Origin: a virus
Lineage: Duplodnaviria > Heunggongvirae > Uroviricota > Caudoviricetes
Direction: 5' to 3' (one strand)
Length of the DNA stretch: 5,642 nt
Virus record (IMG/VR): IMGVR_UViG_2541047500_000008
Shown here: positions 1 to 3,000 of the stretch, piece by piece
How positions within the stretch are numbered: the stretch's first letter is position 1
Layout of the letters: each line of letters begins with the position of its first letter
Made by a program: the position numbers

Positions 1-3000
1 ATCCCGCCCACGTTTTGCAGCCAGGGTCCAGGCTGATGAATGAGCTTCTCCGGGTTTATCTTCGGTCATACTGTTGCAGTGCCACAGCGAGCCCCCCCAC
101 GTCACCGTATCGCCGGGGTGGTAGGTTTCACCGGCTCTGAACACACCACGGTAGAGCATCACCGGCAGGGAAAATGTTTTTTCCGTACGCTGGCCACTGC
201 TCTGCCGGACCACCACAGAGAACGACCGTTCACCCGTCATGCTGACGTCAATATCCGCCACCCCGTCAACCAGGCATTCCCATCCCCGCATCCCGTACGT
301 TTTTTCATACGCCCGCCAGAGTCCACCCTGGTGTGTGGCATACGAGCCCCGGGGAAAGGATTTTTGATCGTCAATGGCGGGGAGTATTTCCAGTGCCGTG
401 GCATCACGCCCGTCCTGCGGAGCCGGCAGGGCACTCACCGCCTCCAGAACCGCCTTCTGCAGAACATCCGGATCGTAGTCACGACCATCACGCGGAACAG
501 GAATATGGCTTACCGCCTCCTTCACCATCTGTTCAAGCATCGGATGCACATCATCCGGAGTGATACTTTTGCCGTCTGCCGGTACCGGAATATTCGCAAC
601 CGCATCATTCACCGCCTTCTGCAGAACATCCGGATCGTAGTCACGACCGTCGCGCGGAACAGGAATATGGCTCACTGCCTCTTTCACCATCTGCTCAAGC
701 ATCGGACGCACATCATCACCCGTCACGCACTTCTGTAATACCACAGACTGAGAAGCCAGTTTTTCTTCAAACGTTTGTGCCTGCGCGGCTATTTTCTCCT
801 CAAATGTACGCTGTAAATCCGCCAGCACCATGGCGAATTCTTCGCCCAGTGCACGAATAATGGACAGTTCCCGTTCCGTCATTTTCGCAGTATCCCCCTG
901 AACATCGCTTTCACCGCATCATGCTCTGTTTCACTGATTGCCTTATTACCGTCAGATGCGCCATCAGGCAGTTGTGCTGAGACTGTTTTCCCGGACGACG
1001 CGAACGGATCCTCACGGGCATCACGACGGGACAGCGCCTCCAGACTGTAGTTCTGCTGCTGAAGATACAGTGCATCACCGCCGGCCAGGGGCGGCAGGTT
1101 CTCACGTTTACGGGCCTCATTGGGCGTCAGCAGCGTATTTTTCACCGACTCACCCAGCGTTTTCATGCGCCGTTCGCTGTCCATTCTCAGCAGCGTGGTG
1201 ACGTCAAACTCCGTGCTCTCGTTTTCCCCCGTTTCCAGCGCCTCATCCAGTAACAGCTCAATGGACTCAATCAGCGTCTGCAGACACTGGGAATAATACT
1301 GCTGCTCCAGCGCCTCCACGTTATCACTGGAGGGAGGTTGTCCCACACCAATCTTGTAGGCCGGGACACGGAACACCGAACAGACAATTTCAGCGGTCAT
1401 TTTCAGTTGTTCCACCGTCTGCGCATCCACCGGTGAAAACGTCGTGGGGTTATATTTCGCCCCGTTGCTCAGAATCGCCGTTTTCCCCGCATTTTCGCCG
1501 GTATACCCGCTGTCCCAGTTGCTCTTCAGTTTTTTCGCATTTTCTTCCGTAATACTGCCGGGGATCTCAATCACCCCGGACGGCCTGCCGCCATTTCTGA
1601 AAAAAGACGTTGAATTTGCCTGAATATGATACCCCTGCGTGGCAGCCAGCCCGGCAGCATACACCGGCGGCAGCCCCACAAGCGGATGAAAAAAACAGTT
1701 AAACCGGTCGTGGATCACTTCCCGGGCAGGCACCGTCACCGCCTCCGTGATCCCGCAGTTCCGGTCCGGCGTGATGCGATAGAACACCTCGCCGTCATCC
1801 GCCACCAGAGGTTCAACCCGGCTCCAGTCCAGAATACGCAGTTCTTTGATCTGCCCACGGGAGTTACGGATTTTCAGCACCACCGTATTGCCGTGACGCA
1901 GTTTGGCGTTCAGCCACAGTTCAAAAAACTGGATACGATTCTGCTGTGCATTGGGACGACGACAGAGACGGGCAATATCCCCCTGCCGTTTTTCACGGCG
2001 GATCCCCTGTGTATCGGTCTGCATCAGGCGCAGCCGCATTTTGGCGATATCCTGGGATATCAGCGAAATGCAAGAAAACACCGCATGAAAGGAGAGGACA
2101 CTTTCCGGATCGGCTTTCACTCCCTGCTGCCAGGCACCGGCAAAAGGCTCAGCCACCGCCTGAAACAGGCTGGTCCAGCCCACCTCTTTTACATCACGTC
2201 CTGATTTCTGGTTTTTTCGGGGTCGCCGCAAAAGGTTCCACATTCGCCATGCTCCGCATCACGTTTCTTTTTCTGACCTGCCGGACGTCGCGCTGTGATG
2301 TACTCCGCCTTCCCCAGGCGAACCAGCACCTCCGCACACGGCTGTGCCACATCACGGATATCCCCGGCCCGGGCATCATGCGTGCCCTGCAGATACTGGA
2401 TTTTTGCCATCAGTTACTGCGGGAAGCTAGCGCCTCCCGCCCTCCTCATCAGACTCAGCCGCCGGACGCAGTTCCGTAGTTCACACCGGTGATCACAGCC
2501 ACCGCCGCGGTACGGCGACGACGCCAGTTGATCCAGCGCTCCGCACGGATGGCCACGCTGCCGGTCTGGAACATGGAGACCAGCTCCACCGGTGACGGTG
2601 TGCTGCTGTCGCTGGTCGGTTCAGACTGCATCTCCAGTGACGCTTCACGGGACATATCCACCGCCACACCACCGTCATCCGCCAGATAAATATCCGGCGC
2701 ATTCACCAGTACCAGCTGGTCACCCACATACTGGGAGACAATCACCGGCAGCCCCTGGAAGGTCCCGCCCAGCAGGGTCATGTCCGGATATTCCTTCTGC
2801 CCCAGCGCATTTTTACGCATGGACAGCGCCAGGGCATTCGTGCTGGACATCAGCCAGACCGCACCGGTGGGCTGCAGATTTGCCGTCACAAACTGGCCAA
2901 ACGCGGCCTCGGCATCCGCATCCGGATTACCGCTTGACGCCGTGCCCTTCACATCATGGGTGATGGACGCAGGGGAGACATCTGCCACCGCCGCTTTTTT

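Follow-up and report, generated by a model that had tools for sequence, protein, structure and literature searches.

A coding tandem repeat of variable copy number in gene X, a putative fiber gene adjoining the portal gene of lambdoid Escherichia coli prophages

The stretch of DNA analyzed here (5,642 nucleotides; IMG/VR record IMGVR_UViG_2541047500_000008; Caudoviricetes), which we call the window, carries at its left end an open reading frame (ORF) that directly follows a phage portal gene and contains two adjacent 162-bp units. We refer to this reading frame as gene X. The array in X is a coding variable-number tandem repeat (VNTR), of which the window holds the two-copy allele. Every long ORF of the window that has a family match lies on the minus strand, and together these ORFs constitute a phage head-morphogenesis block (Table 1). 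With 294 of 299 codons present, X lacks only AGGGK plus the stop codon, as judged from orthologues that end five codons past the window edge; complete orthologues are 245 aa (locus L002) or 299 aa long.

Table 1. Features of gene X and its neighbors in the window (aa numbering refers to the X protein).
Feature	Position (nt)	Strand	Details
ORF X (repeat-bearing)	1..882	minus	runs off the left end; downstream neighbor of the portal gene
N-terminal long helix, aa 1-50	733..882	minus	AlphaFold2 (AF2) helix 3-50; presumed coiled coil and attachment end
Repeat unit 1, aa 56-109	556..717	minus	28-aa + 26-aa half-repeats; short helix, then loop ending IPVPRDG / IPVPADG
Conserved 108-nt core of unit 1, aa 56-91	610..717	minus	
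Repeat unit 2, aa 110-163	394..555	minus	terminal type 'B'; ends LPAPQDGRDAT
Conserved 108-nt core of unit 2, aa 110-145	448..555	minus	
C-terminal beta-rich domain, aa 164-294	1..393	minus	CBM5/12-like module(s); most conserved part of the family
Pfam CBM_5_12 stretch, aa 249-271	70-138	minus	
ATGA overlap	879..882	minus	portal stop TGA 879-881, X start ATG 880-882
G5 run (coding strand)	894..898	minus	11 nt upstream of the X ATG
HK97-type portal gene, 454 aa	879..2243	minus	Pfam Phage_portal 1.4e-80 over 2-321/321; TIGR01537 3e-106
73-aa ORF, phrog_829	2189-2410	minus	function unknown; between the capsid and portal genes
Prohead-protease::major-capsid fusion gene	3168-4391 + 2455-3249	minus	split here into two ORFs
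Large terminase	4455-5639	minus	partial

Repeat units of gene X and their copy number

The array is the single long direct-repeat family in the window: positions 437-555 match 599-717 at a spacing of exactly 162 nt and with 90% identity over 119 nt, and the only other family is a 13-nt match of the kind expected by chance. The spacing corresponds to 54 codons and the ORF is uninterrupted across both units, which bears out the in-frame duplication proposed in the original prediction. That prediction had placed the repeat at 395-718, and in codon register the two units lie one nucleotide away from this position (Table 1). Tandem Repeats Finder reported nothing in the window, probably because there are two copies only and their tails have diverged. 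Each unit consists of two half-repeats, whose end motifs are, in order, IPVPRDG, IPVPADG, IPVPRDG and LPAPQDG. The sub-repeats had been described beforehand as two 27-aa stretches ending in IPVP-x-DG-R/K; the subdivision holds, with 27 aa being the mean of actual lengths of 28 and 26 aa, and with a fourth motif that departs from the proposed consensus.

The 36-aa cores of both units read DDV(R/H)PMLEQMVKEAVSHIPVPRDGRDYDPDVLQKAV. A codon-by-codon comparison reproduced the eight differences over 108 nt and the single differing residue that had been noticed earlier, with seven changes being synonymous and one non-synonymous (R59/H113). The core contains 23.7 synonymous and 84.3 non-synonymous sites (Nei-Gojobori), so that the proportions of synonymous and non-synonymous differences (pS and pN) are 0.30 and 0.012, respectively, and the ratio of the corresponding rates (dN/dS) is 0.03. 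Finding at most one non-synonymous change among eight has a P of 1.6e-4 in a binomial test and of 8e-5 in Fisher's test. Outside the core, the two units of the window are quite different. The same pattern extends to 121 distinct units from related loci, where pN is below pS in 7247 out of 7247 pairs (median pN/pS 0.32). The repeat units are under purifying selection, both within the window and family-wide, in agreement with the constraint on the protein sequence that had been suggested.

Copy number was compared across 83 related loci, taken from IMG/VR, from phage records and from genomes. Between conserved flanks, the array holds 1, 2, 3, 4, 5 or 7 units, giving X proteins of 245, 299, 353, 405-407, 461 or 569 aa, respectively, and each unit always carries two IPxPxDG motifs. 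The gene measures 738, 900, 1062 or 1386 bp in phage records and this window, and a 1000-bp query covers 838, 1000, 1162 or 1324 bp in complete E. coli genomes. Copy number changes in steps of one unit (54 aa) by unequal homologous recombination or slippage, and all observed changes preserve the reading frame and the half-repeat register. The original prediction had named the repeats as substrates for such changes and had called for a comparison among related prophages; the array proved to be polymorphic in about 80 related loci and in complete genomes.

We clustered the 162-nt units into lettered types and read the arrays as barcodes. These form several series (AB, AAB, AAAB, AAAAB; DAB, DAAB, DAAAB, DAAAAAB; ECB, ECCB, ECCCB; LFS, LFFS) in which internal unit types expand and the first and last types are constant. 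The window array has the barcode FB. Its second unit matches the last unit of two- to four-copy arrays in many loci with 0-1 nt differences, and its first unit has the same 108-nt core as units in loci L002, L006 and L058. This recurrence in the arrays of other prophages supports the earlier view of a duplication that is not recent. At synonymous sites, the two window units have diverged (dS about 0.38) much more than the prophages have overall (1-8%), and the unit types are therefore old and have been shuffled between alleles.

Single-copy orthologues with the same flanks occur at loci L002 and L006 and in phage Lys8385Vzw. Such orthologues had been expected beforehand to point to a spurious or very recent duplication; they do exist, but as recombinants between unit 1 and unit 2. 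The one-copy allele (L002, L006) carries all unit-1-specific variants through AATGAT, followed by the unit-2 tail, and the joint falls within the sequence GCGGT. Since GCGGT is shared by both units, the allele is a clean in-register product of unequal crossing-over.

Arrays of a different type were seen outside E. coli. The Klebsiella and Pantoea homologues P0073 and P0081 (402 aa) have a type of 54-aa unit of their own, in three nearly identical copies, and an additional proline-rich segment after the N-terminal helix. Units are thus near-identical within these lineages and different between them, indicating that arrays are homogenized within lineages (concerted evolution). In addition, many clusters of the family (P0006, P0017, P0084, P0298 and others), with member sequences numbering in the hundreds to thousands, are made up of proteins labeled 'partial' from contigs of 0.5-5 kb. 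This is a sign that assembly from short reads is routinely interrupted within the 162-bp array and among multi-copy prophages.

Gene X, the portal gene and the surrounding head module

The start codon of X overlaps the stop codon of the portal gene in a 4-nt ATGA sequence, an overlap that is also present in L002, L086 and phages BP-4795 and FSL SP-016. This stop-start arrangement suggests translational coupling, and the G-run upstream of the ATG may double as the Shine-Dalgarno sequence of X. The length of this run distinguishes two states among the related loci. In the G5 state (53 loci and the window), the portal stop overlaps the X start and both genes are separate ORFs in different frames. 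In the G6 state (28 out of 81 loci, including phages 2851 and YYZ-2008), portal and X form one in-frame ORF of about 860 aa, with the junction stretch reading ...KAMFRGDTEKMTERE... in these phages. None of the 29 haplotypes defined by the 120 nt upstream contains both states, and G5/G6 is therefore a stable inherited polymorphism; rapid phase variation and sequencing noise, which we also considered, are not supported, given that no mixed 120-nt haplotype was found. By inspection, the portal/X junction (CGA AAA TGA) permits a -1 slip of tRNA-Lys onto AAA beside the stop codon, and it contains no canonical X XXY YYZ heptamer. Structural proteins that are extended by programmed frameshifting include 10A/10B of phage T7 and G/GT of phage lambda.

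Portal profiles of Pfam and NCBIfam give no match in X, and NCBIfam holds no model for X at all. X does match 'portal' families of PHROG, but only in their C-terminal halves, these families having been built from fused gene models. As there is no profile match and the upstream ORF covers the whole portal profile, we rejected the possibility that X is a true portal domain. The 'portal' label that X bears in GenBank, RefSeq and PHROGs derives from such fused gene models. The Prokaryotic Genome Annotation Pipeline (PGAP) annotates portal and X together as one pseudogene, 'phage portal protein, frameshifted' (L001, 5983-8241; L002, 2983-5081), and X is hidden as a consequence of this treatment of the G5 state. 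Other record names for X are 'portal protein', 'portal protein B', 'carbohydrate binding domain protein' and 'phage gp6-like head-tail connector protein'. The naming of X as a portal protein is a systematic mis-annotation of a separate gene.

Relatives of X number 5474 among 1.84 billion cluster representatives, 2635 of them at E<=1e-10. They are between 123 and 1237 aa long and contain about 1 to 20 or more half-repeats. Of these 5474 matches, 150 diverse representatives were listed, and the portal part is absent in 148 of them. The helix-loop repeat is conserved from phages of Enterobacteria to those of Rhizobium. The gene order portal, X, gp6-like adaptor is shared by E. coli, a Logan contig, Salmonella phage FSL SP-016 and Rhizobium phage RHph_X2_26, and neighboring genes in this block usually overlap by 4 nt. 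A distant relative, P0231 (1237 aa), represents an independent portal-X fusion. Precomputed Pfam matches of multi-copy proteins include PF28083. A sequence search of the PDB with X yielded a marginal match only (7b5h, All3316; E 0.39), and literature searches retrieved neither a published description of the protein or its array nor a proteomic or structural paper on it. X thus belongs to a family that is large, uncharacterized and mis-annotated.

The window as a whole shows 97-99% identity to lambdoid prophages. Among 5,426 complete E. coli genomes, 1,254 contain such prophages, the median being 4 matching places per genome. Its X region is 91-97% identical to that of long-tailed phages converting for the Shiga toxins (Stx) Stx1a, Stx2a and Stx2c and their relatives (BP-4795, 1717, YYZ-2008, 2851). 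In the records of these phages, X is followed at its 3' side by genes for a gp6-like head-tail adaptor, a head-closure protein, an HK97-gp10-like protein and tail proteins. The window lies in the head module of a lambdoid, Stx-phage-type E. coli prophage.

Several further observations concern the genes of this module. The 645-aa prohead-protease::major-capsid fusion gene is split into two overlapping ORFs by a 1-nt deletion in a C-run at 3389-3390 (CC here, CCC in L001 and L002), reflecting either a defective prophage copy or a homopolymer error of the assembly. In the closest full-length match, L001 (E. coli 2013C-3342, 6066-8241), the portal gene is frameshifted into pieces of 351 and 101 aa and X is frameshifted near its 3' end (271 aa); these extra frameshifts are consistent with decay of this prophage lineage. 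The 73-aa ORF that follows the capsid gene shares 55 nt with the portal gene as annotated (start at 2243), and its 56-aa counterpart in L086 directly adjoins the portal start instead. The coding (minus) strand carries a terminator-like hairpin with the sequence GGACCGCTGCGGCGGTTT and a T-run behind it at 4413-4430, inside the late operon and between the stop of the large terminase gene (4455) and the start of the protease::capsid gene (4391). Terminator-like sites are not enriched across the window, with 4 observed against a shuffle expectation of 4.8.

Predicted architecture and proposed role of the X protein

The X protein is predicted to consist of an N-terminal helix, a repeat-bearing stalk and a C-terminal beta-rich domain. 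Its first 16 residues, M(T/N)ERELSxI(R/K)ALGEEF, are nearly invariant in an alignment of enterobacterial relatives. An AF2 model of all 294 aa, built from 18 sequences, was poor (predicted local distance difference test score, pLDDT, 59) and was not used in the fold search. The model of aa 109-294 from 45 more diverse sequences reached a pLDDT of 82. In unit 1, helices are predicted at residues 55-71 and 84-96. According to the models, the stalk would be formed by alternating 28- and 26-aa half-repeats, each pairing a short amphipathic helix with a 12-residue IPxPxDG(K/R) loop behind it. Runs of at least five consecutive collagen G-X-Y triplets are present in 54 of 150 relatives and start at the IPxPxDG loop motif in the relatives that were inspected. 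The window protein has no such PF01391-type run, with a single G-R-D or G-K-S triplet per loop. As collagen forms helices only as a trimer, the collagen runs of the relatives support a trimeric fibrous stalk, in which short coiled-coil segments would be joined by proline-rich, collagen-like turns.

In the structure search with the AF2 model, the C-terminal domain, a small beta-sheet fold, superimposes on solved chitin-binding domains. In relatives, the CBM_5_12 profile (PF02839) scores 25.1-27.1 bits, and P0166 lies above the Pfam cut-off. By its modeled structure, the tip of X belongs with the CBM5/12 modules and is a putative carbohydrate binder.

Taking these lines together, we consider it probable that the window contains the two-copy VNTR allele of a stand-alone structural gene whose product is a trimeric virion fiber with a carbohydrate-binding tip, the number of repeats setting its length. 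X would assemble as a trimer on the virion, at or near the portal vertex. Each unit would add two helix-loop segments, probably corresponding to a few nanometers, so that repeat number would set the reach of the tip, and the tip would bind a surface glycan and thereby aid attachment. Some points weigh against this proposal. The C-terminus of HK97-type portals faces the capsid interior, and X is fused in frame to precisely this end in 28 of 81 loci, which fits poorly with an external fiber. We infer both the presence of X in virions and its site there. AF2 confidence is low in the stalk of these monomer models, and the CBM_5_12 score of the window protein is 21.3 bits, below the gathering cut-off of 26.2. 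Finally, with its capsid gene frameshifted, the window may represent a defective prophage in which this copy of X resides.

Among the alternatives, it is extremely improbable that the duplication is an assembly artifact or arose very recently in this sequence alone. It is true that assemblies from short reads break in the array, that many family proteins are 'partial' on contigs of less than 2 kb, and that single-copy orthologues with the same flanks exist; but between the two units the cores have 8 differences in 108 positions and the tails far more, and hence the array is not a collapsed or duplicated pile of reads. Moreover, the complete genome CP027766 (L001) carries the same pair of units, with core differences of 1 and 0 nt, CP027552 matches the entire window in one piece at 98.8% identity, and 299-aa alleles were found in seven further loci. 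Unit divergence and the same pair in complete genomes effectively refute this explanation, and we rejected it. The repeat could instead be evolutionary baggage, a neutral low-complexity linker in a decaying prophage gene with a copy number that is a mere by-product of recombination among paralogous prophages. Recombination partners are ample, as the region is present a median of 4 and up to 24 times per E. coli genome, and decay could be read from the frameshifted capsid gene of the window and the further frameshifts in portal gene and X of L001. The clear purifying selection on the core and on every unit pair, the preservation of frame and half-repeat register in all copy-number changes, and the conservation of the helix-loop repeat as far as Rhizobium phages nevertheless make a neutral linker unlikely.

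A functional tie to the portal, as the database labels imply, is another alternative. Inside the capsid, X could extend the C-terminus of the portal crown or act as its partner (e.g., barrel-like or ejection-type), the repeats then setting an internal length. The in-frame fusions, which include those of the sequenced phages 2851 and YYZ-2008, the independent fusion in the distant relative P0231, the invariable position of X behind the portal gene with overlap of its stop codon, and the treatment of both as one protein in PGAP and PHROG models would all agree with such a role. We nonetheless hold it to be rather improbable: nearly all of the diverse representatives listed (148 of 150) have no portal part, X has no match to the portal hidden Markov model and the upstream ORF contains the complete portal domain, stalks of the collagen type and CBM5/12 tips typify external phage fibers, and a carbohydrate-binding fold has no obvious use inside a capsid. 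The fiber proposal can also be taken further, with X being a portal-vertex lectin fiber of long-tailed Stx phages and many other HK97-type siphophages, its stalk length heritably tuned by 1-7 units and its attachment (free and translationally coupled, or covalently fused to the portal) by the G5/G6 state, as an unrecognized means by which temperate phages adjust how particles stick to host or gut glycans. This extended version is very doubtful.

The practical value of these results lies mainly in annotation and assembly, with X being concealed in 'frameshifted portal protein' or 'portal protein' calls in the RefSeq records examined; this region is present in 1,245 of 5,426 complete E. coli genomes. 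The family is very large (>5,000 clusters at 50% identity), with a conserved position in the head module and a predicted tip of the sugar-binding type, and it occurs in the long-tailed Stx1a, Stx2a and Stx2c converting phages. Should X be a virion fiber, how well Stx phage particles adsorb or persist could depend on repeat number. Prophage typing could also make use of the array as a marker.

Comparison with portal proteins, chitin-binding modules and phage fibers

X resembles the portal protein (PF04860 / TIGR01537) in its genomic placement, as it always adjoins the portal gene and is sometimes fused to it, but it is unlike the model of the portal fold. Its C-terminal domain is predicted to share the fold of CBM5/12 chitin-binding modules such as the Streptomyces ChiC domain (2d49) and that of Serratia chitinase B. 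In contrast to these chitinases, the module of X caps a phage structural protein rather than an enzyme, and its profile score falls short of the Pfam cut-off.

Apart from chitinases, the best structural neighbors of the tip are phage fibers with carbohydrate-binding tips, specifically the tail fibers of Agrobacterium phage 7-7-1 (9rkv), gp47 of Pa193 (9b45) and chains of the Milano baseplate/receptor-binding complex (8fqc). Identities to these neighbors are 10-26% and template modeling (TM) scores are low because the tip alone aligns. Phage proteins annotated as 'collagen triple helix repeat' in BFVD share the overall plan of X, namely a fibrous stalk with a terminal beta domain. The gene for X, unlike those for tail fibers, lies outside the tail-fiber block and within the head-completion block, where it is flanked by the portal and gp6-like adaptor genes.

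Fibers of the head and neck offer an analogy. The collagen-like gp12 of SPP1, the segmented coiled coil of T4 fibritin and gp8.5 of phi29 are head/neck or decoration fibers. The repeated short helical segments and loops of T4 fibritin and phi29 gp8.5 recall the predicted stalk of X. Such fibers, together with the head fiber of the gene transfer agent RcGTA, are flexible, bind surface polysaccharide and help in first attachment, properties that X might share by analogy only. The RcGTA head fiber Rcc01080 (PMC7296036) is likened to X in this functional sense. No sequence or fold homology of X to head/neck fibers was detected in the PDB sequence and fold searches.

Tandem repeats in a phage structural protein have also been described for crAss-like phages, where one report (PMC6949934) presents repeated BACON domains in a putative carbohydrate-binding structural protein and views them as hotspots of evolution. 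Compared with the BACON repeats as presented there, the repeats of X are 54-aa segments of a helix-loop stalk, and its binding-type domain is single-copy and highly conserved. Repeat-length polymorphism is familiar in fibrous phage proteins, and the array of X is therefore ordinary in kind.

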